A DNA stretch of 36,292 bases, from positions 1 through 36,292 of IMG/VR virus record IMGVR_UViG_2877285697_000006; one strand, given 5' to 3'. Positions 1,453 to 36,292 of the stretch are shown piece by piece. This DNA comes from a virus. Its lineage: Duplodnaviria; Heunggongvirae; Uroviricota; Caudoviricetes. The notes beneath the pieces are model-generated. The model had not been told where the DNA came from and did no database searches. It saw only the letters and a program-made list of their open reading frames with translations. How positions within the stretch are numbered: position 1 is the first letter of the stretch; each line of letters starts with the position of its first letter. The translations under genes and the position numbers were made by a program.

Positions 1453-1489
1453 GCCCCTATCGTTATAATACGCGGTAGGGGCGTTTTTG
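1453..1489 (+). terminator. hairpin (GCCCCT...AGGGGC) followed by GTTTTT
   Basis: 6-bp GC stem with long loop then T-run, after stop of 1019..1438. Confidence 0.35.
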
Positions 1490-1501
1490 TTTGGAAATGG
1501 T

Positions 1502-3525: not shown

Positions 3526-3723
3526 CTATAATTGGCTTAAATCAAGCTCTAGGTCTTCCGGTTCTTTCATTACTTCAACCAGAGACGGATCTACTTCGTC
3601 AAAAACGACTTTATCGTCTGCGGTATATTTGTCTATAATGAAAAAATGGTCAGAAATATAGCTTACGTCGCCAGCATATTCTAACAAAAAAGCGCCCACC
3701 AGAGGCGCTTTTGTTTTATCCAT
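3526..3723 (-). CDS. doubtful 65-aa ORF
   Basis: Open frame only; its 5' end is occupied by a terminator hairpin and it overlaps the endolysin stop. Confidence 0.2.
   Translation of the reverse strand: MDKTKAPLVGAFLLEYAGDVSYISDHFFIIDKYTADDKVVFDEVDPSLVEVMKEPEDLELDLSQL
3686..3717. terminator. bidirectional hairpin terminator (AGCGCC-caccagag-GGCGCT) with A-run upstream and T-run downstream
   Basis: GC stem flanked by AAAAA at 3686-3690 and TTTGTTTT at 3710-3717; just downstream of the endolysin stop on the minus strand. Confidence 0.45.
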
Positions 3724-4069
3724 TCCACCGTGATTTTTTTGATCTGGAATCGATATGCGTAAATGTTTTATATTTTCCTAAGCCGTATTGAGTAGGATAT
3801 TTCCCATCAAGATAAGCATGAACAATATCAGGCGAGACACCCTTGATAACAATGTCAGCCGCGCGGCCTCGAACATGATAGCTATTGGTTGCGCCGCCTA
3901 CATTCTTGTTATGAGTCGGGCAACGGTTCCCACTGTTAATAATCACTGGTTTACCGAAGTGCTCTCGTACATCCTCAAGAATCACCAGTAATTCAGCGTC
4001 GATTGTATCATAATCACATTTTCCGCATTTACATTTAAATTCCTTGCGAGAAAAATGCTTACTTAACAT
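3716..4069 (-). CDS. endolysin, peptidase M15 family (L-alanyl-D-glutamate peptidase type)
   Basis: 117 aa with zinc-peptidase motifs (SGNRCPTHNKNVGGATNSYHVRGRAADI ... FTHID); SD AGGGGG upstream. Confidence 0.75.
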   Translation of the reverse strand: MLSKHFSRKEFKCKCGKCDYDTIDAELLVILEDVREHFGKPVIINSGNRCPTHNKNVGGATNSYHVRGRAADIVIKGVSPDIVHAYLDGKYPTQYGLGKYKTFTHIDSRSKKSRWNG

Positions 4070-4078
4070 ATTACCCCC

Positions 4079-4426
4079 TTAGATCATTTCGAAGATATAA
4101 CCAATAAAGCGCATACCCTTGATATAATAAGGAGCAGTGCCTACACACACCGCGCGTGCATCACCCAGACAGTTAAAGCTATAAGGATTAACTACATCGA
4201 CTTCTTGCCCTACACGAAAACGATATTTAGGACGTTTAGCCAATGTAGCGACACAAAACACGGTCCCCTTTTCATGGTCACGGATACATTCTTTATATTG
4301 TTTATGTTTAACTCTCTTCGCCTCAAAATCATAGGTCATTGATTCTGGGCTAATGCCATTAATAAAAATACCGGAAAGCTGATCAACCGGATAAGTAGGA
4401 AATTCAGTGAAAATATTTTTAGCCAT
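4079..4426 (-). CDS. hypothetical protein (115 aa)
   Basis: ORF in operon-like tandem arrangement with neighbours. Confidence 0.5.
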   Translation of the reverse strand: MAKNIFTEFPTYPVDQLSGIFINGISPESMTYDFEAKRVKHKQYKECIRDHEKGTVFCVATLAKRPKYRFRVGQEVDVVNPYSFNCLGDARAVCVGTAPYYIKGMRFIGYIFEMI

Positions 4427-4464
4427 GTTATACCCCCATAAGATTCTATGAGGGTATTTATTGA

Positions 4465-5148
4465 TTAAACGTATTTCATGCGCGATTTAATGTGCTTATT
4501 GATGTTTTCAAGCATCATTGCTTCGTTGCTTTCCCACGATCCTAGCGTCGAATAACGAGTAGAAATTTTATCCGACTTAACGGCAACAATTCGCTTACTT
4601 TGTTTCTGTATGCGTTTCTCTAAGCGACGTTTTGCCACCGCAGATCCATTCCTAGCGCGTTTGGTTCGGGATTTCTTAGGCTTGTACTTCTTCATGATAA
4701 AAGTCCCTTCCTTGTTCTCTACCTTGATGAAGTTGCCGTTTTCGATGTTACGCATCATCTTACCGCCTTTAATGGCCTTAATGTTCCCGTGGGAGTCTAA
4801 GACCTTGCCGTTGGCGATTGGCACTAGCTTATTGATTTTGCCACCATCGAAATAGTGTTTCAGATAGTCATCCTGACTGCCGATCTTCTTGTCCTTATCC
4901 CTTGCGCCCTTGATGAAGATTTGGTGTCTCGTCCCTGATCGGTTCTTGTAGTTGGTATTACCTACAGCTTGCTGAGTCCAGCGAGTAGGTCTATCAACAT
5001 TCTTGTTAATCTTCTTCTGGAGTGCTCTGGAAGCAAAGATCGCCCCTTCCCCTAGTGCCCTTTCGAATGTATCGGTTGCCTTTTCAGACCATTGCCGTAA
5101 CGCTTTCTTAGTCCTTAGAGCGTTTCGTTTATTGGTACTGGTTGCCAT
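4465..5148 (-). CDS. lysine/arginine-rich hypothetical protein (227 aa)
   Basis: ORF; start ATG overlaps stop of upstream small ORF (TAACATGG). Confidence 0.5.
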   Translation of the reverse strand: MATSTNKRNALRTKKALRQWSEKATDTFERALGEGAIFASRALQKKINKNVDRPTRWTQQAVGNTNYKNRSGTRHQIFIKGARDKDKKIGSQDDYLKHYFDGGKINKLVPIANGKVLDSHGNIKAIKGGKMMRNIENGNFIKVENKEGTFIMKKYKPKKSRTKRARNGSAVAKRRLEKRIQKQSKRIVAVKSDKISTRYSTLGSWESNEAMMLENINKHIKSRMKYV

Positions 5149-5149
5149 G

Positions 5150-5320
5150 TTAGCCCCCTAATAACGAAAAGACCCCCGCCAGTGTCCTTAGCAATTGTTC
5201 ATCCACGGTCATAGCCGGGAGTTCAAGCCCAAAGGACGTTAGCAGAGGTCTAATAGCTACGTTATAAGTGAGGGCGACAATCAAGAGATAACCAAAATAT
5301 TTCTTAAGTTTATTCTTCAT
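5150..5320 (-). CDS. small membrane protein (56 aa)
   Basis: Not in ORF track; SD AAGGGGTG 6 nt upstream of ATG at 5320; hydrophobic N-terminal segment YLLIVALTYNVAI. Confidence 0.3.
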   Translation of the reverse strand: MKNKLKKYFGYLLIVALTYNVAIRPLLTSFGLELPAMTVDEQLLRTLAGVFSLLGG

Positions 5321-5338
5321 ATATTCACCCCTTTATTA

Positions 5339-5617
5339 TTATTTTTGTTTGAGTATGTCGAGAACTTGGTCAAATTTGGCGTCCATCGCAACCACTTTCT
5401 TCTCTATACCGTGTAGTGTTTGTTCCATTTGGTAAACACGTTCAGCAATCTGAGTATGGTTATTCTGCATCGTCTCAAACTTCTGGTTTAACAATGCGTC
5501 GCTGGATTCCAATTTCGACAATCTATTTTCAGTTGCTAATTGATTTCGGTGAAGTCTCCAAAGACCACCACAAATTAAGGCGATAACACCGATACCGCCA
5601 TATATAATTTCAGTCAT
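5339..5617 (-). CDS. membrane-anchored coiled-coil protein (92 aa), possible spanin or holin-like lysis protein
   Basis: N-terminal TM (IIYGGIGVIALICGGLW) followed by predicted coiled coil. Confidence 0.4.
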   Translation of the reverse strand: MTEIIYGGIGVIALICGGLWRLHRNQLATENRLSKLESSDALLNQKFETMQNNHTQIAERVYQMEQTLHGIEKKVVAMDAKFDQVLDILKQK

Positions 5618-14393: not shown

Positions 14394-14900
14394 TTAAGAG
14401 ATTTTCAAAGTCTGCTTAGTGCCAGTCTTCTTAATGTTATTGAGGAAAGCAGCCGGAGGATTGCTTAACCAATAGTAATGAAAACCACTTTGCATACTGT
14501 TATAAGGAACAGTGACAGCCGCACCACCCAAATTAACCGTTATATTCCCCGCTCTGCCGTTCTGGAGATATACAGCCATAGTAGGAGTACCACCATTGAA
14601 TTGACCAACGATAACGCCAATTAGACGGCCTACGCCCACGTTTTCGGAGTTCTCCATTGACCCTTTACCGCGCATGTCAGTTACTGGATAGTTAGAAGCA
14701 GTTACACCCCAGTTATTACCCAATGAAGTAGACCACGCAGCAGTAGCTACAACCGTATCCATACCACGACCAGCCATTGCCGACATATTACGCGGAGCCG
14801 GAACTTTTAAAGCTGTTAATGCTTCTTTCATCCATCGCTTACCCGTCACCGATACAGCAGATGACCCGATCCAGCCAGGAACTTTAACGACATTTGCCAT
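14394..14900 (-). CDS. tail protein (major tail or tail terminator candidate)
   Basis: 168 aa, SD GGAG upstream, immediately upstream of G/T. Confidence 0.4.
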   Translation of the reverse strand: MANVVKVPGWIGSSAVSVTGKRWMKEALTALKVPAPRNMSAMAGRGMDTVVATAAWSTSLGNNWGVTASNYPVTDMRGKGSMENSENVGVGRLIGVIVGQFNGGTPTMAVYLQNGRAGNITVNLGGAAVTVPYNSMQSGFHYYWLSNPPAAFLNNIKKTGTKQTLKIS

Positions 14901-20980: not shown

Positions 20981-21940
20981 TCATTCGCCGATCTGGAGAA
21001 CTTTAAGAGCTTCCGGCTGTACTACAGTGAAGTCAATGTCCAGCCAGATTCTAGGCACGATCGCAGACTGGGCGCGGTACGTTGAATCGTCCAGATCTAG
21101 CTCAAGACCGCCCCACTCACCGATCATGATGCCGCTGTAATCGCCCAGCACGATCGTGTCAGCTGGAATAACACCGGAAGTAATTACATCGTAACCAGCC
21201 AGTTTGCCGTTTTCGATGATATAACCGGAAACGCCGTTATCTTTCAGGGTAGATTCCAGTTCAGCAGCAGTTGCACCGCTCATTGCAAACTTGATGGACT
21301 GTGCCGGAACGCCAGCGTCCGTAAGCTGAGCAATCTCCTTGAGGAAGTCTTTGTAAGAGAAAGCGGCTTTCTTAGTAACGCGACCACCGTCTACCAGTTG
21401 CTTAACCAGACCTTTCGGACCGCGCTCGTTGTCTTTGTCAGACAGAATCAGTTGTTCCAGTTTGATCCGAACAGATTTGTTAATGTGATCAGTGATCAGG
21501 GTAGCGATGCCCGGAACGGTTTTGAGGCTAGCCCTAGAAATTGGGTTCCCGCCTGCGAAAGTTTTCGGAGCCATTTTCACGTTTTCAAAGCTAGCCTTCG
21601 ATTCGGGGGCACTTCCATTTTCATCAACAAAACCAAAGGCTTCGACGCTGGAAGCAGTCATTTTTGGTACTGCAATCGGGCTATTCAGACCAGACAGAAC
21701 AGTCACACCCAGACGACCCAGAACAGACTGTGGAAGCAGCATTTCAACATAGGATTCGGTCAGCAGTTTTTCGTCGGTTACAGCTTCCAGAGTAGCTTTG
21801 GTGTTACCAGCAGAAGCAGCACGCAGAGCAGCAGCCGGAACGAATACAGAGCCACCACGAGCAGCACCGACCACGCTGCATTGCAGCACCAGCAGCCATT
21901 GCGGAATATTCAGCTTCATGAGCACCCAGAGTTTCACCAT
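20981..21940 (-). CDS. major capsid protein (HK97 fold); N-terminus probably supplied by the upstream protease-scaffold ORF
   Basis: 319-aa ORF with strong codon bias and capsid-like sequence; no SD before its ATG; MCP frame has a TGA immediately upstream. Confidence 0.75.
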   Translation of the reverse strand: MVKLWVLMKLNIPQWLLVLQCSVVGAARGGSVFVPAAALRAASAGNTKATLEAVTDEKLLTESYVEMLLPQSVLGRLGVTVLSGLNSPIAVPKMTASSVEAFGFVDENGSAPESKASFENVKMAPKTFAGGNPISRASLKTVPGIATLITDHINKSVRIKLEQLILSDKDNERGPKGLVKQLVDGGRVTKKAAFSYKDFLKEIAQLTDAGVPAQSIKFAMSGATAAELESTLKDNGVSGYIIENGKLAGYDVITSGVIPADTIVLGDYSGIMIGEWGGLELDLDDSTYRAQSAIVPRIWLDIDFTVVQPEALKVLQIGE

Positions 21941-22985
21941 CGATCAGGGAGCGGAATACGTTGTTCAGGTCAAAAGTTTTTTCCATGATTTGTTCCTTAT
22001 TAATTTGTTCGTTATTACGTTGAGCATTGATAATGTTATTTAGTGCCTTAGTGCGGAATGCTTCCGGCGTCATGTCTTTAACTGCCAATGCGCGTTTTAA
22101 TTCTTCGTCGTCAATATTTAGTTCCCGCGCGATCTCGCGAATTTCTAATTCGTCTTCTTCGGAACGTTCAGCCACTTCTTCGATTTTTTCTTCTTCAACC
22201 GGAGCGGCTTCACGTTCTTCTTTTACTTCTTCTGCTTCCCGAACAGTTGAACTATCATCATCAACACTTTCAGGATGTTCAGCGACTTTTCCGTCTTCGA
22301 GATTTTCATTTTCTTCATTCTCTTCAACTTGGCGCTCTTGAGTTTCTTCAACTTTCGGTTCTTTATTTTCTTCTACCGGAGTTTCTTCAACCTGAGCGGG
22401 TTCTTGTTCTTCTTTGATTTCTTCGATTTGTTCTTTAGTCATATCGCGTTTAGCCTCCAAATTAACTGTGATAGTATTTAGAGAGCGATTTAAACCGACC
22501 GTATCGTCAGCAGGAACGGTAACGAAACTTAATTCGTATGGTGCCCACTTAGTAACAATCAATTGCCCTTTGGCGTAATCGATGTGATATTCTTTAATGT
22601 CATAGCCGACAGAAATTTTTTCCATCGTACCTTCAATGACTTTATTACGAACATCATTAGCCAAAGTGCCATGTTTAGAGAATTTAACCAGAGCACGGCC
22701 TACGTTATCCGCATCGATTCGAGCGTCGCAGACTACACCTAAATGATTATCGAAATTATGATTGAACAGCAACGGAGCGTTATTATTCAGACGAGACAGA
22801 TCAACCGCTTCCGGTGTATGTACCAGAATTTCATCTAATACCACCATTTCTTGATTTTGCTCATCCCAAAATTGGCGCTGATAAGGCTGTGTACTTGAGA
22901 AAGCAATTTCAAATTCGTATTGATCGTTATGCCCTTCGTTAATAACTCCACCGTAACCGTTAAGATCGCGGCGAAATTTAAGCAT
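21804..22985 (-). CDS. prohead protease (HK97 S78-type) fused to acidic coiled-coil scaffold domain
   Basis: N-terminal ~180 aa with LLFNHNFDNHLG-type protease motifs, then glutamate-rich region; 3' end (RCCSWWLCIRSGCCSACCFCW) looks like out-of-frame translation of the MCP start. Confidence 0.7.
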   Translation of the reverse strand: MLKFRRDLNGYGGVINEGHNDQYEFEIAFSSTQPYQRQFWDEQNQEMVVLDEILVHTPEAVDLSRLNNNAPLLFNHNFDNHLGVVCDARIDADNVGRALVKFSKHGTLANDVRNKVIEGTMEKISVGYDIKEYHIDYAKGQLIVTKWAPYELSFVTVPADDTVGLNRSLNTITVNLEAKRDMTKEQIEEIKEEQEPAQVEETPVEENKEPKVEETQERQVEENEENENLEDGKVAEHPESVDDDSSTVREAEEVKEEREAAPVEEEKIEEVAERSEEDELEIREIARELNIDDEELKRALAVKDMTPEAFRTKALNNIINAQRNNEQINKEQIMEKTFDLNNVFRSLIDGETLGAHEAEYSAMAAGAAMQRGRCCSWWLCIRSGCCSACCFCW

Positions 22986-25119: not shown

Positions 25120-27024
25120 TTAGAACGATGTTACCCAGCTACGGCCTCTGTTTGGGCGTCTGGCGACGTTTTGACGTTGTGGTCGTGTGATTGGCTTAGT
25201 TTCTTCTATTTGCTCGTTAGATTGCGATTTAGGAGCTTCTACGGATTCTTCGACAACACGGTTTAAGCTGTCTTTCATTGCAATGAGTTTATCCCATGAC
25301 ATTTTTGAAAGAACGTAGCGAGAAGCCGCTGTAGCATACACGGCGCAGTCGAGCGCCTCGTTCCTAACGCCTGGGTTCTTTACCCACCTCACGCCAGTAG
25401 TAGTACGCTTAACAGATTCACTTAAAAGCTGATCGAGATAATCATCAGGAACGGTGTCTGATATTTCTAAGCCAATATGAGGATTATCTTTCAGGTTCCT
25501 AGCCAACATTTCACGAAATGCAGTTTTACCCACGTTAACGCCCAGCATAAGCAATTCATGACCACCTGTGCGGGTAGGTTTAACCGGAATGATCGGAGCG
25601 TTACCAGCAGAACTACCTTTGATAGCGTGTAAGTTCTTCCACTTGCCGCAAATACGGTATCCAGCTTGAGTGAATCGACCGTTCGATGTATCAAGGAAGC
25701 TGGCGAGCATAGGAACACGATCACCCGATACAGTAGTAAATTTGGTTTTATGGAAGTTGATTAATCTATCCCATACAGGGGATTCATATCGTTCACAGTT
25801 ATGATCGTAAAAGCTGCGATGATCCAGAATATAAATCTTATCCTTTGCCACGCCCATGATCGTAGTTTCTGCGCGATCTAATTGCTGGTCAGTACCCGCA
25901 CACAAGAAAATCACGTCATCAGGGATATTCTCGATAGAAACATCTGTTTTGAGTTGTTCCAGTTCATTTGCTTCTACTGCCGTGTCCTGATCGTCGTATA
26001 CCTTGCCTAACACGGTGTTAAAAAAGGATTGTAAATCAAAGGATTGCCACGCATGACTAAAATCAACCACACAAGCGCGAATCGTGCTGAAAGGTGAATA
26101 CAGACGACTGATCCAGAATCCGGCTACTTCACTTTCACGGGTTGCTCTCCACTCGCCTTGTGCTACTGCCCTGATTCGTTCCCCTTCTGTCCATGCGTTC
26201 TTACAGTGGGGGCAAATATAACGAGCGGTATCAGGATCGGGTAAGTTCTTACCATCAATGTTACGCCATTCAAATTGAACGTTTTCCCACTCGATCACCT
26301 GGTGTTCCCCGCAATGCGGACACGGAACAAAAAACATACGCATGTCGCTTGATAACCATTGCTGGTTAATGCTTCCCAGCTTACTGGTCGGGGTACTGGA
26401 TACGACTAATCGGCCTTCATCGCCAAAGGTAGTTAAACGGTTAGCAGCCAGTGCCACCGGATCACCTTCTTCTGAGGCTGTAGCAGCATCGATTTCGTCA
26501 AGCAATCCAACCTTTGCGGTCTTACCACGTAGGGTTGATGGACTGGTAAGCGATACCATGTACAGGAAGTGATTCGTTTTTAGCTGTAGCTGGTTATTGT
26601 TGTTAACCGCATTGCGATCATTCTTGTCTGTAACCACGTCTTTTAATGCATCACATGCTTCGATAGACGGTCGGATCTTACCCGCGAGATATTGAGACAT
26701 TTCTTTAGCGGTTGATTGTCCGATAATCATATTGCATGGATCGTTAGCCATCTGGTTAAACAGGATGCCGTTCAGGATGGTAGTCTTTCCGATCTGCGCA
26801 CTGGTCATCAGAACATACTTTTTCTTGTTCTCAAGGAAAGGAGCATCAATCATGCCTTTCTGGAATGACAGTAATTTAACTTTATCCCCCGCTTGAGGAC
26901 CATCTACCAGCACCATATTAGCTTCGCACCATTCAGAAGGAAGGAGCTTAGGCGGTGGAGTGATATATTTTGCGGCATTTTTAAGAATCTTTTTTAATTT
27001 TGCCTTATTTGAAATCAGTTTCAT
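25120..27024 (-). CDS. terminase large subunit, lambda GpA-like
   Basis: 634 aa; ATPase P-loop region (TSAQIGKTT), zinc/nuclease-like CPHCGEHQ...CPHCKNAW; SD GAGGGT. Confidence 0.85.
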
Positions 27025-27111
27025 GTAATTACCCTCATTACGAAATATGAAGGTATTTATTAAATTGTTGATATTTTGATAAATACGGGTATTAAGATTT
27101 AAGGGGGTTGT

Positions 27112-27717
27112 ATGCTAATTAATCAGCAACAAAGAGATGTATTAGAATTAGCCTTTTCTTGTTGTACCGATCATGAATATCGTTTACCAGTTAAACATAA
27201 GCATTTAAAAACCGACTACACAACATCTGGCTTTAGTCGTGAGGAAGCTAAACAGATTTTAATCGAGTTGTATCGCGATCATGGGTATACCGATATTCAC
27301 AACTTCTTTAAGAAGCACCAAACATCACAGACAGAGTTTAATAGAGTTCGTGAATGGTTTGATTTTGACATTAAGCGATTCTATCGAGTAGATGACGGTA
27401 CAATCTATCGGTTGCAGTGGACACCGATTAGGGAAGTGCTTAAACAGAAGAGATTGAATCATGCCATTACACGCTATCGTAACGTGGCTTTTAAGAAAGG
27501 CTATGGTGATACAAGGGAACTATTCGTTGAACTCGCTAACGTGCGATATAGCCACTATTACAGGAATCCTAAAGAGTTCTTCGAAGTGCTGCGCAAAGTT
27601 GATATAAGTCGGGGTACATACTATTCACGGTTGAAGAAGTACGGGATTAAGGCAGAGTTCTTTATGTCGGTTGACGATGGAGAACTTTTTCCGATAAAAT
27701 GTAAGTCCTCTAAATAA
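27112..27717 (+). CDS. hypothetical protein (201 aa)
   Basis: ORF diverging from terL. Confidence 0.5.
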
Positions 27718-27745
27718 AGGTGAACATTCACTTTAATTTGGAGAA

Positions 27746-27979
27746 ATGACTATGACTACTAAAGCTACTCGCGGTCGCCCTGCCCGTTTTAACGCTGAAC
27801 AGATGGCTGATATTGCCTACGCTTACTATACAGCGGATCGCGGGAAGGAAGCGAAAGAACAGATTCTTAGTGAGCACGCTATATCGGTAGCTCAATTCTA
27901 TAAAAATATCAAGAAGTTAGATATTAAATTCTATGTTCAGATTGGCGACGGTCAAATCGTAGAAGCAACAGGTTTTTGA
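27746..27979 (+). CDS. small DNA-binding-like protein (77 aa), paralog of 31027..31209
   Basis: N-terminal RGRPARF motif; aligns along its length with the 60-aa ORF at 31027. Confidence 0.45.
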   Translation: MTMTTKATRGRPARFNAEQMADIAYAYYTADRGKEAKEQILSEHAISVAQFYKNIKKLDIKFYVQIGDGQIVEATGF

Positions 27980-27994
27980 GTTTTGATTCTCTTT

Positions 27995-28018
27995 GCCACT
28001 CTTCGGAGTGGCTTTTTT
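27995..28018 (+). terminator. rho-independent terminator (GCCACTC-UUCG-GAGTGGC + U6)
   Basis: Perfect 7-bp stem, UUCG tetraloop, TTTTTT. Confidence 0.65.
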
Positions 28019-28090
28019 GTATGTAAAACAATCTCGCCAGTTTTGGTGAGATCTATAGATGCCAGCAAAAATGCTGTTATCTATAAAAAC

Positions 28091-28115
28091 AAAAAAGCCC
28101 CTGAAATTCAGGGGC
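28091..28115 (-). terminator. rho-independent terminator for the minus-strand Rha-like gene
   Basis: GCCCCTGA-loop-TCAGGGGC stem followed by TTTTTT on the minus strand. Confidence 0.5.
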
Positions 28116-28123
28116 AAAAATTA

Positions 28124-28921
28124 TTACAGTCCGAAGTGTTCTAGCGATCCAACATTCTGACGAATCATGATAGTCGCTTTATTCTGAATCATGATCGTGT
28201 TATTCGGTTTAGGCAGTGTCAAAGCTGCTTTTTGTTCTTCTTCAAGAACACCCAATTCAACCAGCACCGGAAGCACATCAACAGTGAAAGAAAGTTGATA
28301 GTGAGCGTTCATGCTACAAAACGGTATCGCGGAATCATTAGCAACATACCCACACGGCTTGTTATTTTCATCATAGACGCGCTCAATGTATCCGGCAGTA
28401 CGTAAGGCCGTCAGTGCTTCTTTAACCTTCGTAGCGCCCTTTTTAGCACCTAACAGACGCGTCATTGAATGGCTATCTACGGATTTGCGATGATGTAGAG
28501 TAATCAGTTGCTTGTTCTCGCGAGTTTTCTTTAACGCCAGTTCGATCCAGTCGGTTTCTTCAAAGTCTGCATACGGGTTAACAGCTAAACGTTCCTGACG
28601 CAGTTTTTCATTTTCTTCTTTCAGTCGTTTCCATTCCTGAATAACAATCATTCGACGCTTAACATCGTAACCAGTGACAAGAGTCAGTGTCAGTTCTTCG
28701 TCAAGGTGATATTCGGTTTGTTCGCGTCCATATTGGTCAAAAAAGATGCGTCCAAATTTGGACTCATCTAATTCAAGAGAAGTAAGCATATTTTTAATAT
28801 CACGTTTAACATGCTTATGCTCTTTTTTGGTAAATTCAGCAATCTGACGAGAAGACATGGTCAGCGGTTTGGTGTTATCAACAACCAGAGACACGGAAGC
28901 AGTTTTAACAGCAGTATTCAT
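28124..28921 (-). CDS. phage regulatory protein Rha / antirepressor-like
   Basis: N-terminal SSRQIAEFTKKEHKHVKRDIKNML fits the Rha-family pattern. Confidence 0.65.
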   Translation of the reverse strand: MNTAVKTASVSLVVDNTKPLTMSSRQIAEFTKKEHKHVKRDIKNMLTSLELDESKFGRIFFDQYGREQTEYHLDEELTLTLVTGYDVKRRMIVIQEWKRLKEENEKLRQERLAVNPYADFEETDWIELALKKTRENKQLITLHHRKSVDSHSMTRLLGAKKGATKVKEALTALRTAGYIERVYDENNKPCGYVANDSAIPFCSMNAHYQLSFTVDVLPVLVELGVLEEEQKAALTLPKPNNTIMIQNKATIMIRQNVGSLEHFGL

Positions 28922-29015
28922 AGTAAAAATTCCCCTTAATTAACGGTTTTTTGCGATTTAATCCTCCCTGTTCCGGCAGCACCACCGGAACAATTTTATT
29001 TATAAGAGCTATTTC

Positions 29016-29201
29016 TTATTTGTTGTTAGCACACAATCCGCGTAAAGCCATTTGCAAAGGTGATGGTTTCGGTGCTTTGGTTTCGTCTTTATATTCCACA
29101 TCCACTGTTTCGGTAGCCCAGCCAAAGCCCTTAACATAACGACGACGGCGGGTTTCGATCACTCCTGGTTCACGTTCACGGGTAAAGGTTTTCATGTTCA
29201 C
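29016..29201 (-). CDS. small basic hypothetical protein (61 aa)
   Basis: ORF downstream of a sigma70-like promoter. Confidence 0.4.
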   Translation of the reverse strand: MNMKTFTREREPGVIETRRRRYVKGFGWATETVDVEYKDETKAPKPSPLQMALRGLCANNK

Positions 29202-29252
29202 ATCCTTTTAACAAATCTAGGTCAAGTAAGTTCAAAGTTGTCAAGTGCGATA

Positions 29253-29281
29253 ATCATAAAAAAGTGAGATTTATTTGTCAA
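29253..29281 (-). promoter_or_regulatory. sigma70-like promoter (TTGACA - 17 nt - TATGAT) on the minus strand
   Basis: Consensus -35 and near-consensus -10 with 17-nt spacer, about 45 nt upstream of the ATG at 29201. Confidence 0.5.
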
Positions 29282-29294
29282 CACCCCTTGACAA
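29275..29294. promoter_or_regulatory. perfect inverted repeat TTGTCAA-N6-TTGACAA overlapping the promoter -35
   Basis: 7-bp arms with 6-bp spacer; same half-site as the palindrome at 30655-30668. Confidence 0.4.
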
Positions 29295-29316
29295 GTCGCC
29301 AAAGTGTTGACCTAAC

Positions 29317-29784
29317 TTACAGCATTTCTAAGCCTTCATCGTAGCCGTAGAAGCTATTGTGAGAAGAAAAACAGATTGGTGCGTAGTCTTCGTCTTCCTC
29401 GTCTTCTTCATCTTGTTCTGGGGCTTCCTGAGCGGTTTCTTTGCCGTAGTTAAACATTGCTTCATCCAGTTCATAGACAGTAACGAAGCTACCTAAATCA
29501 ATGTCACCTGACCGGACTTGAAACGGCAGATCATCACGAACAATAATTGCTGGTAGATTCTGGTATTTCAGGCGTTCTTCATCGGTGAAGCAGTTAACAA
29601 CGATGGTAGGACGTTTATTTCTTCCGAAAACATACCATGCACTAGAGAAATGGGATTCATCGGTATTGTAAAGGATGTTATAACCACGTTCACGGAACAT
29701 CTTCATTAACTTGTCATTGTGAAAGCTATCTGCATCCAGACCCAGAAGGATAAAAGGAGTAGTGGTAGTCATTTTGTGGTTCAT
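29317..29784 (-). CDS. hypothetical protein with acidic C-terminal tail
   Basis: Start chosen at MNHKMTTTT with SD AGAGGA; track ORF extends to 29814. Confidence 0.5.
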   Translation of the reverse strand: MNHKMTTTTPFILLGLDADSFHNDKLMKMFRERGYNILYNTDESHFSSAWYVFGRNKRPTIVVNCFTDEERLKYQNLPAIIVRDDLPFQVRSGDIDLGSFVTVYELDEAMFNYGKETAQEAPEQDEEDEEDEDYAPICFSSHNSFYGYDEGLEML

Positions 29785-30360
29785 AGTGGAATCCTCTAAA
29801 AGAAAGTGAATCAAAGTAATTCTGATATTATTTATAAGAGAAAATTCTTGATGATTTTGGAAGGGATGGATTCAGTCGGCTTCGCCTCCTTCATAGATTT
29901 GATTAAAAGACCAGCAAACGTAACTCGGATCTTATAGTTAATATAGTTATCTTTGAAGAAATAATAATCAGGAAGCAATTTCAGCAACCGCAGGTTGCGA
30001 TCCCGAAGGGATAACCAATACCTTTCTAGAAAGTGATTGTTACTCACTTCGTTCGTTTACTAGAATCAGTTATCATCTAGTATTAAATCCCTTTCTAAGA
30101 AAATCCTTTCAAAAGTGAGTGAACGCCGTAGGCGTGAACGTGAGCGAAGCGAACTATCCAATCCCTTTCGAATCCTGCTTGCAGGTCTTAGAAGGTGTTG
30201 GTGGGCGCTACGCGCACGGCTACGCCGTATTCTTTTTGCGAGATCTTTCTTGAACGTAGTGAGAGAAAGCGAGCAAAAAGGAGAACGTTAGTTCGAATTT
30301 TATATTCTATGGTCTGTGGGGTATAATCCCTTTCAAGATCATGCACTTACGTTATTGAAG

Positions 30361-30460
30361 TGTAGGGTTAGTGTAGGTGTGTAGGTTTCATAGAGTAGGT
30401 TTACTGGCTAGTGTAGTGTAGGCCAATCCCTTTAAAGTGTAGGTGTGTAGTGTAGGTTTT
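30361..30460. repeat. cluster of about 7 direct GTGTAGG(T) iteron-like repeats
   Basis: Same-orientation repeats within 100 bp in a noncoding region, followed by an AT-rich stretch. Confidence 0.55.
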
Positions 30461-30654
30461 CTATCAAAATTTTTGACAAAAAATTCTTGTATATTATTTA
30501 ACCAAAAAATCACCAAAAAGCGGCGTAAACTCATGATTTAAAAGTGATTTTCAAAAGATCTCCGTGCCATAATAGGTTATAAAGGTTGATAATCATTATC
30601 TGCCATTTTCAAACAAAAATTTTGATACACTTTTCTCGCTTAGGTCATGGGCAT

Positions 30655-30682
30655 TGACAAGTGTCAAGAACTATTTTATACT
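30655..30682 (+). promoter_or_regulatory. strong sigma70-like promoter (TTGACA - 16 nt - TATACT)
   Basis: Consensus -35, near-consensus -10; -35 embedded in palindrome TTGACAagTGTCAA. Confidence 0.6.
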
Positions 30683-31026
30683 TTTTCTCACTGGTAGGGG
30701 TTGAAATTTTCCAAACAATCCCCATATAGATGATAAGCATGATTTTTTCGTGTATAAATACATGCATGAAAAATGATTGTTCACTTCTGAAAACCTCCTG
30801 ACTCACTGTTAACTCATACAGCACTGGTTAGATACACAGTGCTTTTTCGGTTGAATATTGTACGGATTGATTAATTATTAATCTTCTCTTTAGCAATTCG
30901 TGCTCCCACTGATCGGATATACAGTGGTTTTACAGAGTTTTTGAAAATCATTTTTATAAATAGAATTGTTCAGAGCGAAAAGCTCTTTTTAAAGAAATCA
31001 TTATTCCAGATTTAGGAGGATTCAAG

Positions 31027-31209
31027 ATGGCACGACCTGTTAAGTTCACTCGTGAAATCGTTTTAGAAATGGCAAAGCGTTATTTTGAACTGACACCTGA
31101 TGTAGTGATGGGTGATTGGTTTAAAGGTGAAGGCATTGATCAATCAACCTTCCATAAACTTTTAAAGAAGTATGAAATTCGCGTAAAGATTACCGCCGAG
31201 GTGTGGTAA
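31027..31209 (+). CDS. small DNA-binding-like protein (60 aa), paralog of 27746..27979
   Basis: SD AGGAGG upstream; MARPVKFTRE... aligns with the 77-aa protein. Confidence 0.45.
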   Translation: MARPVKFTREIVLEMAKRYFELTPDVVMGDWFKGEGIDQSTFHKLLKKYEIRVKITAEVW

Positions 31210-31250
31210 TAACCTTTGACTGAGAATTATATGATGGCTTTAAAAATAAA

Positions 31251-31281
31251 AAGCCTCCCTGTTGGCGCAAGGAGGCTTTTG
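31251..31281 (+). terminator. hairpin terminator (AGCCTCC...GGAGGCT + TTTT)
   Basis: 7-bp stem, 12-nt loop, short T-run. Confidence 0.5.
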
Positions 31282-31325
31282 ATATGAACAATTAAAACTA
31301 ACACAGCATTCAGGAGTATTTATAA

Positions 31326-32327
31326 ATGAAAAATTCTAAGCGCATCACCTTCAACCTGTTCATTAAATCCAACGGCAAACTGAACATTACCGTTATGGAA
31401 GGTAAAGCAAGCAAACAAGACAAATCCTTTGAAGTAGTTTCCGGTAAGACTCTGACCGAAATGCGTCAAAATGCTGGCATCAAAGACGGTGCTGAATGGC
31501 AGATCACTAACCGTTTCGACAAACGTCACGTTAAACCTACACTGGTAGAAGGTGAATCCGTTTATTGCTTCGCTCGTGCTGTTAAAGCCGATGAGACTTA
31601 CTATCTCGCTGTTATTAAAACTGCTTCCGGCTTCCGTGCTGTAATGCATCACAAGAGCAAGCGTAACGAATACGGCGTAGAGACCCAGGAAGTTGCAAAA
31701 CGCTTCCGTACTGTTGCTACTGAATCCACTGTAAAGGATGTTTCTGGTACTGTTAACACCGCTAAAGGCGGTTCCTTCTACAACCACGCATTACAGGTTA
31801 CTTCCTCCTTCTTCTGCAAAAAAGAAGCTGTGAAAGAAGTTGCTCCGGTAGTAGTTGAAGAAGTTAAAGAAGAAGTTGCAGTGGTTGAATCTTCCGAAGT
31901 TGAAGCACTGAAAGCACGCATCGCTGAACTGGAAGCTGAAAACGCATCTCTGAAAGCTGAACTGGCAGCACAGGAAACCACTTTCGAAGTAGCAGCGGTT
32001 GAAGTTGAAGCAGTTGAAGAAAAATCCATTGATGAAGAACTGGAAGAACTCCTTAACTATCGCTGGGGTAACGGTGAAGAAGTAGAACAGGAAGAACAGA
32101 AAGAAGCTGATCCGGTAGTAGTTCCGGTTGAAGCAGAATCCGCACCAGTTACTAACTTTGAAACACTGCGCAATAACTTTATGGCTAAATTCAAAACTAG
32201 CTGGGAAGATACCGAAGAAGAACAAGAAGAGATTGATGTAAACGAAGACGAGATCCGCGAAGCACAGATGGCACTGCATGACGCTATCTATGACACCAAC
32301 TACAGCGCCTACGCATACGCAGCTTAA
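31326..32327 (+). CDS. highly acidic protein with coiled-coil segment (333 aa), function unknown
   Basis: Strong high-expression codon bias; SD CAGGAG; glutamate-rich C-terminal half. Confidence 0.6.
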   Translation: MKNSKRITFNLFIKSNGKLNITVMEGKASKQDKSFEVVSGKTLTEMRQNAGIKDGAEWQITNRFDKRHVKPTLVEGESVYCFARAVKADETYYLAVIKTASGFRAVMHHKSKRNEYGVETQEVAKRFRTVATESTVKDVSGTVNTAKGGSFYNHALQVTSSFFCKKEAVKEVAPVVVEEVKEEVAVVESSEVEALKARIAELEAENASLKAELAAQETTFEVAAVEVEAVEEKSIDEELEELLNYRWGNGEEVEQEEQKEADPVVVPVEAESAPVTNFETLRNNFMAKFKTSWEDTEEEQEEIDVNEDEIREAQMALHDAIYDTNYSAYAYAA

Positions 32328-32342
32328 TAGAGGGGTGAATCT

Positions 32343-32585
32343 ATGATGAATCAAAACAAAGAATTTCTGGGTAACTTGATGTTAGAAATTATCAAAATGA
32401 AAGAAAGAATGGTAGCGATGGAATCAGAGATTAAAACTCTTAAAGCTGATAATAAGGCGTTGAGAAAGTCCTTAAAGCTGATTGATGAGACTAATGCGGT
32501 TATGATGGATCATGTATTTCCTGAGTGGCGAAATGAAACTAAACCTACACAACATAAGAAACCTACACTTCGAATTGTTGCATAA
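32343..32585 (+). CDS. small coiled-coil protein (80 aa)
   Basis: ORF; followed by two stable CGAA-loop hairpins. Confidence 0.5.
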   Translation: MMNQNKEFLGNLMLEIIKMKERMVAMESEIKTLKADNKALRKSLKLIDETNAVMMDHVFPEWRNETKPTQHKKPTLRIVA

Positions 32586-32868
32586 AAAAGGGACTCCGAA
32601 GAGTCCCTAGTAAGTTTAGGTTAGGTTTGCACAACAAAGATGAGGTTATAATGAACATAATGCTACATTATTCTTTAAAGCCAGAAAAATAACCGCCCCG
32701 AAGGGCGGGAGGATTAATACTCAATCTATACTTGTTATGTTTTTATGATGTATAGATCACTGACTATGAAAACACTGTACTGGAGTGTGTTTTATGGCTT
32801 TTAATCGGGAACTCTCTTTCGAAAATTCCCTGTTAAAACCACATAAGGAGAAAAGGCAGATTACAATA

Positions 32869-33042
32869 TTATTTAGTGTCTGATTTACAGCAACTAAAAA
32901 GAATAAACAAGATTAAGCATACCCAGCCGTAAGGCGTACCGATTAGAAATTTGAAAAACACCACCAGCGATATAAAAATCAATTTAATGCCAGCGACGAT
33001 AGTCAAAAACAGCAGAGTAGCGAAATAGACAAAAAGATCCAT
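32869..33042 (-). CDS. small two-TM membrane protein (57 aa), holin-like topology
   Basis: Not in ORF track; SD AAGAGGA upstream of ATG at 33042; two hydrophobic helices. Confidence 0.3.
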   Translation of the reverse strand: MDLFVYFATLLFLTIVAGIKLIFISLVVFFKFLIGTPYGWVCLILFILFSCCKSDTK

Positions 33043-33095
33043 AGATAATCCTCTTTGAAAACGACCATCATCTATAGTTCAATTCATCGATTTAA

Positions 33096-33197
33096 TTAAT
33101 GATACTTGTAAGCATTACACACAGCAGAAATGCCAATATGTGCCAGTGAATATACGATAGTTAATCCTACAGCCAGATAAATCAAAAATTCAACCAT
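33096..33197 (-). CDS. small single-TM peptide (33 aa)
   Basis: SD GAGGA upstream of ATG at 33197; the longer track ORF 33096..33365 is a chimera that runs into the IS. Confidence 0.2.
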   Translation of the reverse strand: MVEFLIYLAVGLTIVYSLAHIGISAVCNAYKYH

Positions 33198-33241
33198 AGG
33201 TAAATCCTCAAATAAGAAAAAGGTTAGCGGGGGGTGATTCC

Positions 33242-34535
33242 CTGAGGAATCCCCAGAAAACAAGACAGGCATAGTGAGATGTGATCTAATTGATTGTGCT
33301 AACAATTTCAAGGAGATCACCACTATGCCTGCACGTTCATTATGCCAAAATTTCCTTAACAACATACTGGCCCCTTTGCATCTTTACCGTCAAAAATCAC
33401 TGATTGACGCAACTAATGCTGTAATAAATGGCGCTTCCCTCACACTTACCAGTATCGGGCGTCATTTAACCGGTACGGCATCAGTTAAAAACAAAATAAA
33501 GCGGGTGGATCGACTGTTGGGGAATCGACATTTGCAAAATGAGGTTTCCACCATTTTTCAGCGAATTACCCAAAAGATTACGCGGGGAATGTCTCGTGTT
33601 GTGATACTCATTGACTGGAGTGCTTATCATGCCTCTCGTTTTCAGCTTTTGCGGGCAAGCCTGGCATGTGACGGGCGTTCTTTACCGTTGATGAGTTGTG
33701 TCGTTCCATCATCACAGACAGCGAATGCAGATGTACATGAGCGTTTTCTGGAATCGCTTGCTGAGTGCTTTTCCCCCGGGACTGATGTCATTGTTATTAC
33801 AGATGCCGGTTTTCAGGGGCGATGGTTCCAACAGCTCCGCTCCCGTGGCTGGACCTATATTTGCCGGGTACTGGGCAATCATTATTACAATGTTGGTAAT
33901 GGCTGGGAAAAGGTGTCGGACTCAGGCACAAAAGCATCAACGACAGCAATTTATTTAGGTGAAGGCCTGCTGGGTCGAGATAAAAATGCACAACATGAAG
34001 GGCATTTTTATCTTTATAAAAGTAAGCCTAAAGGTCGTAGATTTAAACGCTCGAAGGAAAGAGCAACCAGACCATCGGTGACGGCTAAAGCTCGTACTGC
34101 CGGGAAATCACCATGGTTTATTTTCACAAACAGTACTGAGTTATCGCCAAAACAGGTAATGAAATTATACAGCCGTAGAATGCAAATTGAGCAAAATTTC
34201 AGGGATGAAAAAAATCCTCGCTGGGGATTTGGACTACGGTTTGGTGCCAGTCATTCATCCGGGCGGGTCACGGTATTGAGTCTGAGCGCAACATTAGCCA
34301 GTATCATTATGTGGTTAAGCGGTTTCAGCCTGGAAAACAAAGGGATACATCATAAATATCAGGCAAATACAGTGAAGCACAGGCGAGTCATCTCGCTATT
34401 AAAACTGGCGGAGAATGTGATTCGACATTCTCCACTCATACTAAACACACTGTCACTTGACGCAGGGCTGAAAGTTCTACAGCAACGGTATACCAATATG
34501 ATAATGGTTTACTAAATTTTCTGGGGATCCCTCAG
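33242..34535 (+). mobile_element. IS10-like insertion sequence (IS4 family), about 1.29 kb
   Basis: Terminal inverted repeats CTGAGGAATCCCCAGAAAA (left) and CTGAGGGATCCCCAGAAAA (right, reverse complement), 19/19 with 1 mismatch; flanking direct repeat GGGTGATTCC at 33232-33241 and 34536-34545 (9-bp TSD with 1-bp ambiguity). Confidence 0.85.
33325..34515 (+). CDS. IS10-type DDE transposase
   Basis: N-terminal region ...KNKIKRVDRLLGNRHL closely matches the IS10 transposase as recalled (IKRIDRLLGNRHL); SD AAGGAG; start at MPARSL rather than track start 33274. Confidence 0.85.
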   Translation: MPARSLCQNFLNNILAPLHLYRQKSLIDATNAVINGASLTLTSIGRHLTGTASVKNKIKRVDRLLGNRHLQNEVSTIFQRITQKITRGMSRVVILIDWSAYHASRFQLLRASLACDGRSLPLMSCVVPSSQTANADVHERFLESLAECFSPGTDVIVITDAGFQGRWFQQLRSRGWTYICRVLGNHYYNVGNGWEKVSDSGTKASTTAIYLGEGLLGRDKNAQHEGHFYLYKSKPKGRRFKRSKERATRPSVTAKARTAGKSPWFIFTNSTELSPKQVMKLYSRRMQIEQNFRDEKNPRWGFGLRFGASHSSGRVTVLSLSATLASIIMWLSGFSLENKGIHHKYQANTVKHRRVISLLKLAENVIRHSPLILNTLSLDAGLKVLQQRYTNMIMVY

Positions 34536-34599
34536 GGGTGATTCCCCCCGTAGACGTTGACCAGCTCAACATCTTTCATACATTTATTTATAACGCGCT

Positions 34600-35154
34600 T
34601 TAAGACACATCAAATTCATCGTCTTCTTCTGGTTCTTGTTCCGGTTCATCCATTAATGGTAATTCTTCTTCCTCGTCTTCTCCCAAATCTGCATTTTCGA
34701 ACAAGTCCCCTACTTCATTTAAACGACGCTCGATAATCTCTCTTAGCTTATTCTTCAATGTTTTCTGATCAGTGGCGGATTCTAAAATTTCTAAAGCATC
34801 GATCGTACAAATCTGCAAAATAGTCTGTTTCACTTTCCCGCAGTATTCCGCTAGTTCCTGTTCTACATAACCGACAGGAATCAGGAGATTCATTTTTTCC
34901 TGGTTCTCTCGTTCGGCTGCATCTGCCATTGCTCTTTCTCTGCGGAGACGTTCTTGATCAATCGCTTCTTTGATTGAAGTTTGTTTAAGTGGGTTAATTA
35001 CGTTCTTTAGCACCCAATCGCAACCTTCCTTTGCCGGAACACGCCTCGTATTGGTATTGTAAGGTAGTCCCCTTTCTAACCATCGCTTACCGCCACCATT
35101 CAATGAATAGCCATATAAACGGGAAATTTCTGTAAGGGTTAATTCTTCTTTCAT
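34600..35154 (-). CDS. terminase small subunit candidate (Nu1-like DNA-binding protein)
   Basis: N-terminal HTH-like LTEISRLYGYSLNGGGKRWLERGLPY, coiled coil, acidic C-terminal tail; SD GGAGGA; candidate cos-like GC island upstream. Confidence 0.45.
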   Translation of the reverse strand: MKEELTLTEISRLYGYSLNGGGKRWLERGLPYNTNTRRVPAKEGCDWVLKNVINPLKQTSIKEAIDQERLRRERAMADAAERENQEKMNLLIPVGYVEQELAEYCGKVKQTILQICTIDALEILESATDQKTLKNKLREIIERRLNEVGDLFENADLGEDEEEELPLMDEPEQEPEEDDEFDVS

Positions 35155-35269
35155 TGGTTATCCTCCATTAAATTTGCGTAATTTTATTTATTGGTTTTAC
35201 GCAAAATCTAAGCGCCTAAATCGCATTCTAACGAAGGGAAAGATCCAGTAATGGTAAGGGCTGGGAAGT

Positions 35270-35305
35270 GGGTTAATAGTCGCGTAGCGACCGCGCTAGG
35301 ACTGC
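35270..35305. other. GC-rich island in AT-rich leader upstream of terS-like gene, candidate cos region
   Basis: GTCGCGTAGCGACCGCGCTAGG; contains GCGACC as in the lambda cohesive end recalled from memory. Confidence 0.2.
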
Positions 35306-35512
35306 ACTGATCACGTTTTAAAATCTCACACGCACATCAAATACCGGGGTGCCGAAAACTCCCTTTATTTCATCCGTGGAACAGTACCTTTTTAATTTGT
35401 CAAGCATTAATTTCTTAATTTAATTACTAAATCTCATCCCAATAATTGAAAAAATATCAAAAATCAATAAAGTAAGCATCTAAAAGTCAGTCCATACCAA
35501 AAGAGGTATAAA

Positions 35513-36292
35513 ATGAAAAACATTATCGCTGCTATCGTTCTTTCTGCTACTGCTTTCGGTGCTAATGCTGCGTCCTTTGATTGCACTAAGGCTACTACCA
35601 AATCAGAGAAGTTTATTTGTGCTAATGAGTCAATCTCCGCACTGGATTCGAAACTTCATGAAGTATATGTTAAGGCTGTTAAGATTGATCCGTCTCTTAA
35701 ACAAGAGCAACGCAACTGGAATAAAACTGTTCGTGATACAATGATCAATATCGGGCAGATTCAGCCACTGGAGGCTGTATACAACGCTCAAATCCAAAAC
35801 TTGATGAATGTATTATCTAAAGAAGAAACCGCGTCAGAGAGCGATTCAGAGACTTCTGCGAAGATTGAAGAAGAACAACCGAAACAGGAAGAAGTAAAGA
35901 AACTGAATGTTACCGCGATTTATGCATGTACTACAAAATTTACATGGAAAGTTATCGATGGTGAGGAAACAGAAGCTGTAAAAGATAAACTCTACGGAAA
36001 CAAAACTTTTGATAATAACGGCGGTAAACTTAAGATCAAAATGGTAGACGATGTTCCTGTATCTTTTGTGTATTCCGACAAGTATGATGTTTATAAATCA
36101 AGTCTCAAGCCATCTAAAGAGAATCCAAACGCAATGGAAGGTAAATCCAAACAGGATGCTATTGGACGTGTTAACACTTATAACATCTGGGTAAGCAAAA
36201 AAGGTGACATGCGTCTTGAAGTAATTGAACCAAAATTTGATTCTGAATATAAACACACTCAATTTGCATGTGACATGGTAGACGCAGAGTAA
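35513..36292 (+). CDS. secreted DUF1311/LprI-like protein (259 aa)
   Basis: Signal peptide MKNIIAAIVLSATAFGANA then ASFDCTKATTKSEKFICANESISALDSKLHEVY, fitting the LprI N-terminal domain pattern. Confidence 0.6.
   Translation: MKNIIAAIVLSATAFGANAASFDCTKATTKSEKFICANESISALDSKLHEVYVKAVKIDPSLKQEQRNWNKTVRDTMINIGQIQPLEAVYNAQIQNLMNVLSKEETASESDSETSAKIEEEQPKQEEVKKLNVTAIYACTTKFTWKVIDGEETEAVKDKLYGNKTFDNNGGKLKIKMVDDVPVSFVYSDKYDVYKSSLKPSKENPNAMEGKSKQDAIGRVNTYNIWVSKKGDMRLEVIEPKFDSEYKHTQFACDMVDAE

Follow-up and report, generated by a model that had tools for sequence, protein, structure and literature searches.

The window analysed here, that is, the whole stretch of 36,292 bp of the IMG/VR record IMGVR_UViG_2877285697_000006, is essentially one Escherichia coli prophage of ~35 kb. 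Its gene order runs from small left-end genes and a recombinase gene on the plus strand, through lysis, tail and head genes and the gene for the large terminase subunit (terL), all on the minus strand, to a mixed-strand block, an open reading frame (ORF) of 184 amino acids (aa) on the minus strand and an LprI-family moron gene on the plus strand. The subject of this study is the relation between terL (25120-27024) and the 184-aa ORF (34600-35154), the candidate gene for the small terminase subunit (terS). Both lie on the same strand, and 7,575 bp separate the stop codon of terS from the start codon of terL. The original prediction, which was made from the DNA sequence, had put this distance at about 7.5 kb and had set it against the adjacency that is normal for Nu1 and gpA genes. 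The distance and the shared strand were confirmed, every feature named in it was found in its place, and the premise is correct for lambda-like phages. Three explanations had been offered: terL is transcribed from a promoter of its own in the 87 bp in front of it, an accessory block was inserted between the two genes, or the 184-aa protein is not TerS.

Identity of the 184-aa protein

The large subunit is intact. terL encodes a 634-aa protein of the GpA type, in which the ATPase domain (GpA_ATPase, PF05876, E 1e-56) and the endonuclease domain (GpA_nuclease, PF20454, E 2e-45) both score above the gathering threshold in one uninterrupted ORF, and which matches phrog_15 at E 1e-139. The gene heads the head-tail-lysis gene train. 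This two-domain architecture is shared with lambda gpA, and the small subunit is a remote homologue of lambda gpNu1 that, unlike the latter, falls below the threshold of the Pfam family Phage_Nu1. The 184-aa protein was found to match phrog_57 ('terminase small subunit') with E 1.2e-11 over residues 24-169. A word-indexed search with this protein returned close relatives only, most of them labelled 'hypothetical'; an exhaustive HMMER profile search retrieved 216 relatives. When the full-length relatives were aligned (n = 52), all 52 matched phrog_57 and 22 matched Phage_Nu1 (PF07471; best E 9e-18). The broadened profile matched the lambda-type TerS structures 6HN7 (E 9e-14) and 1J9I (E 3e-12). 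Alignment of the close-family profile to residues 1-98 of lambda Nu1 using HHalign gave a probability of 86% (E 5e-6), with the winged helix-turn-helix (wHTH) aligned over residues 4-74.

An AlphaFold2 (AF2) model of the protein, with a mean predicted local distance difference test score (pLDDT) of 75, shows an N-terminal strand-helix-helix-hairpin (residues 4-40), a 49-residue helix, a helical C-terminal domain and a disordered acidic tail that terminates in EEDDEFDVS. We take this to be the domain order of gpNu1, in which a wHTH is followed by self-association helices and a C-terminal tail. Fold searches with the model were uninformative, with BldC and BmrR among the weak Foldseek matches. 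No second Nu1-like ORF was found in the six frames of the window.

The strongest functional evidence that the protein is TerS is comparative and comes from two loci outside the immediate group (related loci are given L numbers here). In the Serratia prophage L044 (TerS homologue 37%, TerL 40% identical) and in L046 (32% and 40%), terL is of the GpA type and its start overlaps the homologue; this order is the canonical one and differs from that in the window. Downstream of terL, both loci carry the same ~160-aa gene followed by the portal gene, as the window does, and L046 also shares the protease-capsid fusion and a long fibre gene further downstream. On these comparisons, the 184-aa ORF is a genuine, strongly diverged small terminase gene of the lambda Nu1 type. 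The third of the explanations offered is thereby rejected by the phrog_57 match, the profile search, the HHalign result, the six-frame scan and the overlap in L044 and L046. Profile and structure comparison, which had been proposed as the check on this protein, returned a Nu1-type result (HHalign probability and wHTH in the AF2 model).

It could still be argued that the protein is not a terminase and is instead a MerR/Xis-like DNA-binding protein, either an excision directionality factor or a regulator near the attachment site; TerS would then be unrecognised, or there would be none. In favour of this, 0.4-1.1 kb separates the gene from the end of the prophage, the Xis and MerR folds are relatives of the Nu1 wHTH, 14 of the 52 distant relatives also match phrog_66 ('excisionase and transcriptional regulator'), and BldC and BmrR would fit as fold matches. 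The similarity to the terminase family, however, spans the full length of the protein and extends beyond the HTH; homologues overlap terL in L044 and L046; and no lineage has another TerS candidate beside terL, where the adjacent genes encode a gpW-position protein and opposite-strand HTH proteins, the latter lacking in the deeper lineages. We regard this alternative as very improbable. One such neighbour, the 201-aa protein encoded next to terL, was considered as an alternative TerS and discarded: it has no family or PDB matches, is encoded on the opposite strand and is absent from the deeper lineages.

The two subunits may also be connected at their termini. In lambda, the C-terminus of Nu1 binds the N-terminus of gpA. 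Among the E. coli relatives (L009-L033), two TerL types that are ~57% identical occur in otherwise similar prophages and assort independently of the TerS variants. The first 14-16 residues (and codons) are identical between the two types, and both co-occur with one acidic TerS C-terminus (...EEDDEFDVS). The motif KLKKI and the motif acidic-(F/I)-(D/E) are kept in most of the distant lineages. This pattern may reflect a contact between the acidic tail of TerS and the basic N-terminus of TerL, which would fit the lambda rule.

The identification has a practical side. Annotation pipelines and prophage finders assume that terS lies beside terL, and most terS copies of this group are called 'hypothetical', so that a widespread clade appears to be without a small terminase.

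Conservation and content of the region between the genes

Of the 7,575 bp between terS and terL, 1,294 bp belong to an insertion sequence (IS) and 10 bp to its target duplication. IS-free relatives have the same skeleton of genes in a gap of ~6.2 kb. More than 30 related loci that were retrieved with distant TerS relatives have terS 4.9-9.3 kb upstream of terL on the same strand, and the split recurs in every related locus with enough flanking sequence. The synteny comparison that had been suggested therefore shows a conserved arrangement. It is seen in more than 20 E. coli variants, in Salmonella L040 (gap 6.5 kb), in Proteus columbae L039 (5.6 kb), in L045 (5.3 kb), in the L013-type lineage (4.9-6.1 kb; TerS 41-46%, TerL ~50% identity), in L030 (6.8 kb; TerS 34%) and in the DCP80/L047-type phage, a 30.6-kb unit with terS at 25.8 kb and terL at 1.7 kb (TerL 44%). 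As judged from these loci, the split is a trait of the whole clade with a TerL identity of at least 44%. The next clade out, with ~40% TerL identity, has the canonical order. Since its members L044 and L046 are sister lineages in which terS overlaps terL, the split in the E. coli clade is read as a derived rearrangement, and a single ancient event would be the simplest reading.

The skeleton common to E. coli, Salmonella and Proteus consists of terS, an opposite-strand acidic protein gene with a small HTH gene, a gene-free gap of 1.2-1.45 kb, a ~150-aa gene, a small gene with the gene of a Rha-family regulator (E. coli and Salmonella; replaced in Proteus L039), opposite-strand genes of 75 aa and 201 aa, and terL. 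Deeper lineages have unrelated genes between terS and terL. The second explanation, an inserted accessory block, thus holds in a deep evolutionary sense, as the sisters have overlapping terS and terL; it does not hold for this copy, as the split is clade-wide, the block is regulatory and early in character, and only the IS is recent.

Two observations speak for the separation having arisen locally, through rearrangement or decay of this single prophage, for instance by way of the IS. The IS does lie between both genes, and there seems to be a frameshift in the capsid gene: the prohead protease-major capsid fusion gene (20981-22985, minus strand) is broken into overlapping ORFs of 393 aa and 319 aa with an apparent frameshift near 21862, where relatives have one ORF of 670 aa. 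In E. coli, Salmonella and Proteus, as in lineages whose TerS is 33-50% identical, IS-free relatives nevertheless keep the ~6.2-kb gap and the same skeleton. The comparative data already refute this explanation, and hardly any credence is left to it.

The IS itself (33242-34535, plus strand) belongs to the IS4 family and is IS421-like. It encodes a DDE transposase (33274-34515; NF033591, E 2e-106), is bounded by terminal inverted repeats (CTGAGGRATCCCCAG) and is flanked by the 10-bp target duplication GGGTGATTCC at 33232-33241 and 34536-34545. The insertion is absent from relatives, with an empty site in L001, which completes the features found for an IS4-family element; the PGAP (Prokaryotic Genome Annotation Pipeline) label for the IS copy in relatives is IS421. 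It is the sole recent insertion in this copy. The IS sits in the loop of a GC-rich hairpin, ~55 nt past the terS stop codon. This hairpin (GCGGGGGG..CCCCCCGC and a T-run; 33229-34550, minus strand) is the intrinsic terminator of terS, which is uninterrupted in L001 and here is split by the IS, with the T-run moved 1.3 kb from terS.

What lies between the two genes is the regulatory and early control region of the phage and not accessory cargo. Its components as originally listed, namely a Rha-like regulator, an acidic 333-aa protein, a noncoding hub and the IS, are all present; the hub, at 29815-31026, has no convincing genes. Two HTH paralogs had been listed as well; both exist, and the similarity between them is weak (60 vs 77 aa, BLASTP E 7e-4). 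Next to terL and divergent from it, the genes of the 201-aa protein with two HTH-like repeats and of the 77-aa HTH-like paralog form a plus-strand unit (27112-27979), which stops at a terminator at 27995-28012. The repeats of the 201-aa protein are related to the HTH-like 60-aa and 77-aa proteins. Neither product of this unit had matches in Pfam, PHROG or PDB; both genes are kept beside terL in E. coli, Salmonella and Proteus and are absent from the deeper lineages. A minus-strand unit of three genes follows (28124-29814), encoding a 165-aa protein, a 61-aa protein and the Rha-family regulator of 265 aa, and stops at a terminator at 28091-28115. The Rha-family protein (28124-28921, minus strand) matches Phage_pRha (PF09669, E 4.5e-12) and PHROG anti-repressor families. 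On the far side of the hub, three plus-strand genes (31027-32585), with a bidirectional terminator at 31249-31280, encode a 60-aa HTH-like protein, the 333-aa acidic coiled-coil protein and an 80-aa coiled-coil protein. No family matches were found for these in Pfam or PHROG besides coiled-coil noise; orthologues occupy the same position in E. coli, Salmonella and Proteus.

The hub is 1.2 kb long, and a gene-free gap of 1.2-1.45 kb is found at the same position in the E. coli, Salmonella and Proteus relatives. It contains five direct copies of AATCCCTTTC, ~70-165 bp apart, as well as inverted copies, and about eight iteron-like GTGTAGG repeats clustered at 30353-30462. Two near-consensus sigma-70 promoter-like sites and TATAAATA motifs, which are discussed below, are also present. 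The hub is probably an operator or origin region. Of the ORFs scanned, none was recognised as encoding a replication protein; the ORFs of the tail region (~9.5-20.8 kb) lay outside any family-library scan.

Compared with known systems, the arrangement differs from that of lambda, in which the two genes are adjacent and co-transcribed, by a distance of 6-7 kb and by the control region in between. A precedent for separated genes in a cos phage is given by P2 and 186, where terS (gpM) and terL (gpP) stand in separate divergent operons and are co-regulated by a common type of late promoter. In P2, however, the genes are separated by capsid and scaffold genes within the late region, whereas here they are separated by the early and regulatory region. 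The P2 enzymes also belong to other terminase families and divergent operons, whereas a GpA TerL and a Nu1-like TerS are encoded here on the same strand; the likeness is functional only. Neither the literature searched nor the sequenced-phage collection showed a terS of the Nu1 type and a GpA terL with the entire control region between them, and we regard this as a new gene order in a known system. The clade is a natural experiment in the coordination of two unlinked terminase genes by a cos phage.

Candidate cos site and promoters

Directly upstream of terS lies a conserved non-coding cis region of ~240 bp (35155-35405, minus strand), which is a candidate for the cohesive-end site (cos) or its cosB part and for the terS promoter. 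It comprises a block of the form AAAAAGGTACT...GAGTTTTCGG...CAGTGCAGTCC (35299-35393), a GC-rich palindromic GCGCGGTCGCTACGCGAC (35279-35296) and an inverted repeat, TTTGCGTAA-N15-TTACGCAAA, around the motif AATAAATA (35173-35205). The core reads AAAAGGTACT, ~25 nt, (G)ATGTTTCG, then T- and A-runs and tandem pentamers such as CAGTG CAGTC. In an alignment of 10 lineages, this region has invariant columns although TerS is merely 33-55% identical. The block also precedes terS in Serratia L044 and in DCP80, and it is single-copy in the window. In L044, it is the block AAAAGGTACT...GTTTCG that stands upstream of terS, and the serine recombinase is shared as well.

Lambda-like phages have cos immediately in front of the TerS gene, and TerL is positioned on cosN by TerS that is bound to cosB (PMC4669245). 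The conserved non-coding region occupies the place that cos (cosQ-cosN-cosB) has in lambda (PMC4669245), and for this reason the block is the best candidate for cos. We consider it most likely to be the cos or TerS-binding site. A difference from lambda is that no recognisable lambda-like cosN or R-site was seen. A structured RNA leader upstream of terS was considered and rejected, as RNAalifold returned no consensus pairs for the terS leader and Rfam had no matches in the window; this favours a site that acts at the level of DNA. If the cos reading is true, no more than ~1 kb separates attP from cos, and the maps of prophage and virion are nearly collinear. A terS gene with a probable cos at the prophage edge, remote from terL, bears on the prediction of the packaging type, on the risk of lateral transduction and on the recognition of satellites that might hijack the terminase.

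A second conserved element links terS with terL. The motif AATAAATA stands 37 nt before the terS start codon, 36 nt before the ATG of terL (27054-27061, minus strand) and, in a third unit at 4424-4462 (minus strand), 35 nt before the start of the lysis cassette, with the Peptidase_M15 endolysin gene (3716-4069) downstream of it. The lysis leader is nearly identical to that of terL (AATAAATACCYTCATA...ATGRGGGTA..ACATG). The copy before terL lies in the 87-bp divergent control gap (27025-27111), in which the related GATAAATA (27078-27085, plus strand) stands 33 nt before the ATG of the 201-aa gene. Across E. coli, Salmonella and Proteus the spacer varies, but both motifs of this gap are kept. 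The terL-side motif is kept in most lineages, those with ~50% TerL identity (L013-type) included, and is found in L013, L014, L016 and L020. The terS-side motif is kept in all the split-clade lineages aligned or inspected; ahead of terS in Serratia L044 and in DCP80 it is not evident.

The core ATAAATA occurs 13 times in the window. Intergenic DNA, 12.6% of the window, has 11 of these copies, where dinucleotide shuffles gave 3.2 +/- 1.8 (0/1000); TATAAATA occurs seven times, against 0.9 expected from shuffles. The intergenic N-ATAAATA copies, at 978, 4461, 27060, 27079, 29003, 29835, 30754, 30956, 31323, 34591 and 35191, are found 20-80 nt upstream of gene starts, and 10 of the 11 point toward the next gene. 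In distant loci, every copy precedes an ORF start (6/6 in L014 and 5/5 in L016). These regularities suggest that the element is a promoter, and the shared ATAAATA element offers a concrete, directly testable regulatory hypothesis. The late-promoter consensus of T4 is TATAAATA (PMC1524935), to which N-ATAAATA is identical or near-identical. As in T4-type late promoters, which depend on gp55 and gp33, the element is an 8-bp TATAAATA, AATAAATA or GATAAATA without a consistent -35 element, located 20-80 nt upstream and oriented with the gene. It differs from T4 in its setting, a 35-kb temperate phage with no gp55/gp33-like protein among the ORFs scanned, and its role as a promoter is putative. The late promoters of P2 are Ogr-dependent and have a different sequence.

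Other types of promoter were tried and rejected. A sigma-70 promoter built on a TTGACA upstream of AGGTACT has a spacing of 9-13 nt that varies between lineages, and a T4 middle promoter (MotA box) fits the window only and not the relatives. The first of the original explanations, an own promoter of terL in the 87-bp gap, thus receives indirect support from insulating terminators and from the conserved AATAAATA; no sigma-70-like promoter was predicted in that gap. The insulation of terL from upstream minus-strand transcription follows from intrinsic terminators on both strands (27995-28012, plus, after the 77-aa gene; 28091-28115, minus, strong, after the Rha gene) together with the two opposite-strand genes. 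On its downstream side, terS is bounded by its own terminator hairpin.

A mechanism can be proposed from these elements. terS and its ~240-bp cis region would form a monocistronic unit at one prophage end, with its own promoter-like motif and its own terminator, and terL would start the structural-lysis train from the promoter-like motif in the 87-bp gap. TerS and TerL would act in trans, so that adjacency would not be required. Their coordinated supply would most likely be achieved through the shared AATAAATA, 35-37 nt before the start codons of terS, terL and the lysis cassette.

Alternatively, terS and terL could still belong to one late operon, in which a single antiterminated transcript from the region upstream of terS runs through the terminators, antisense to the plus-strand genes, into terL, head, tail and lysis genes. 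Such a transcript would account for the fact that all presumptive lytic genes including terS are on the minus strand, and in the sister lineages the conserved block does head a contiguous terS-terL-head operon. The lack of a predicted sigma-70-like promoter in the 87-bp gap would also agree with it. It would, however, have to pass a minimum of four minus-strand hairpins of terminator type on the way from terS to terL, and neither an antiterminator gene nor a put-type conserved RNA structure in the terS leader was recognised. The motif directly upstream of terL is conserved across genera and is spaced as at terS and the lysis genes, which also argues against a single transcript. We judge a common operon to be unlikely.

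The mechanism with separate units leaves room for a more specific proposal, namely that the dispersed packaging, structural and lysis units are switched on via T4-late-type promoters, which would be read by an unrecognised phage gp55-like factor or by the late machinery of a superinfecting T-even phage. The circumstantial points for it are the enrichment and conservation of the motif, the lack of recognisable replication or sigma genes among the ORFs scanned, the T-even-type genes in the clade (RB49p262-like, ~97% over ~380 nt; a gp38-like adhesin; Endo VII; a UvsW-like helicase) and the phage-lysate assembly DCP80, in which a 30.6-kb clade member is joined to a T4-like genome. No gp33-like co-activator was found among the ORFs scanned. 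The proposal is speculative and has a rather small chance of being right. If superinfecting T-even machinery does read the motif, T4-like phages would both awaken the prophage and face it as a competitor.

Taken as a whole, it is probable that the 184-aa protein is a Nu1-type TerS and that terS is uncoupled from terL in this serine-recombinase temperate phage clade of Enterobacterales. Several points weigh against this account. The 184-aa protein has no direct Pfam or NCBIfam match at E <= 0.1. The identical N-terminus of the two TerL types could equally mark a recombination breakpoint. The cos and promoter assignments are drawn from comparison between lineages, and Pfam and PHROG scans of the ORFs of the block, the left end and the lysis region returned no gp55-like protein, the structural genes and the ORFs at 3716-5617 being outside the PHROG scan. 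In addition, this copy may be defective, given the IS and the apparent protease-capsid frameshift; the latter may reflect either a defective copy or a sequencing error in the record.

One of the intergenic copies of the T4-late-like motif precedes a terminator. In the spacer between the 60-aa and 333-aa genes (31249-31330), TATAAATA lies on the minus strand at 31323 and is followed ~40 nt on by the strong bidirectional terminator (31249-31280). The pair could give rise to a short antisense RNA of ~65 nt.

The prophage group and T-even phages

The large serine recombinase gene (1487-3181; phrog_95, E 3e-58) marks one end of the prophage, and terS lies 0.4-1.1 kb from the prophage end. Relatives at ~92% identity were found by megablast in 327 of 5,426 complete E. 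coli genomes, and members of the clade occur beyond E. coli in Salmonella, Proteus and other Enterobacterales. The CE0007a element, ~35 kb in length, is integrated within hicB, which is also the target in several other strains, and the copy in ETEC1739 is integrated within ycdX; the target gene is left as two annotated pseudogene halves. A tblastn search of sequenced phages with TerS gave no match, and neither did a family-alignment scan of genome contigs. No clean isolated phage represents the clade, whose sole trace among sequenced phages is the chimeric record DCP80. The literature searched holds nothing specific on this prophage type or on a split Nu1/gpA arrangement. The clade is thus an uncharacterised but common prophage group.

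DCP80 (PQ671644.1, Escherichia phage; L004/L048) is entered as a 141-kb 'Gaprivervirus'. A small phage of this clade makes up its first ~30.6 kb, with terL at 1.7 kb and terS at 25.8 kb and with the start repeated at ~30,614; after the small-phage part come the T4-like genes motA, ndd and rIIA. The chimera suggests that a clade member was present in a T-even phage lysate.

Further observations concern T-even-like genes. The first ~380 nt of the LprI-family moron (35507-35893, in the gene at 35513-36292) are 96-98% identical to RB49p262, a hypothetical early-region gene of Krischvirus (RB49-like T-even phages), which indicates recent exchange between the temperate prophage and virulent T-even phages. 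Genes of DNA metabolism with a T4 flavour, encoding a UvsW-like helicase, endonuclease VII and homing endonucleases, are found in or around the block of related prophages (L042/L043, 12978-14363; L045, 15309-15767; L047, 7188-7655; L014, 12275-12889). A gp38-like adhesin annotated by PGAP in CE0007a is orthologous to positions 14394-14900 of the window.

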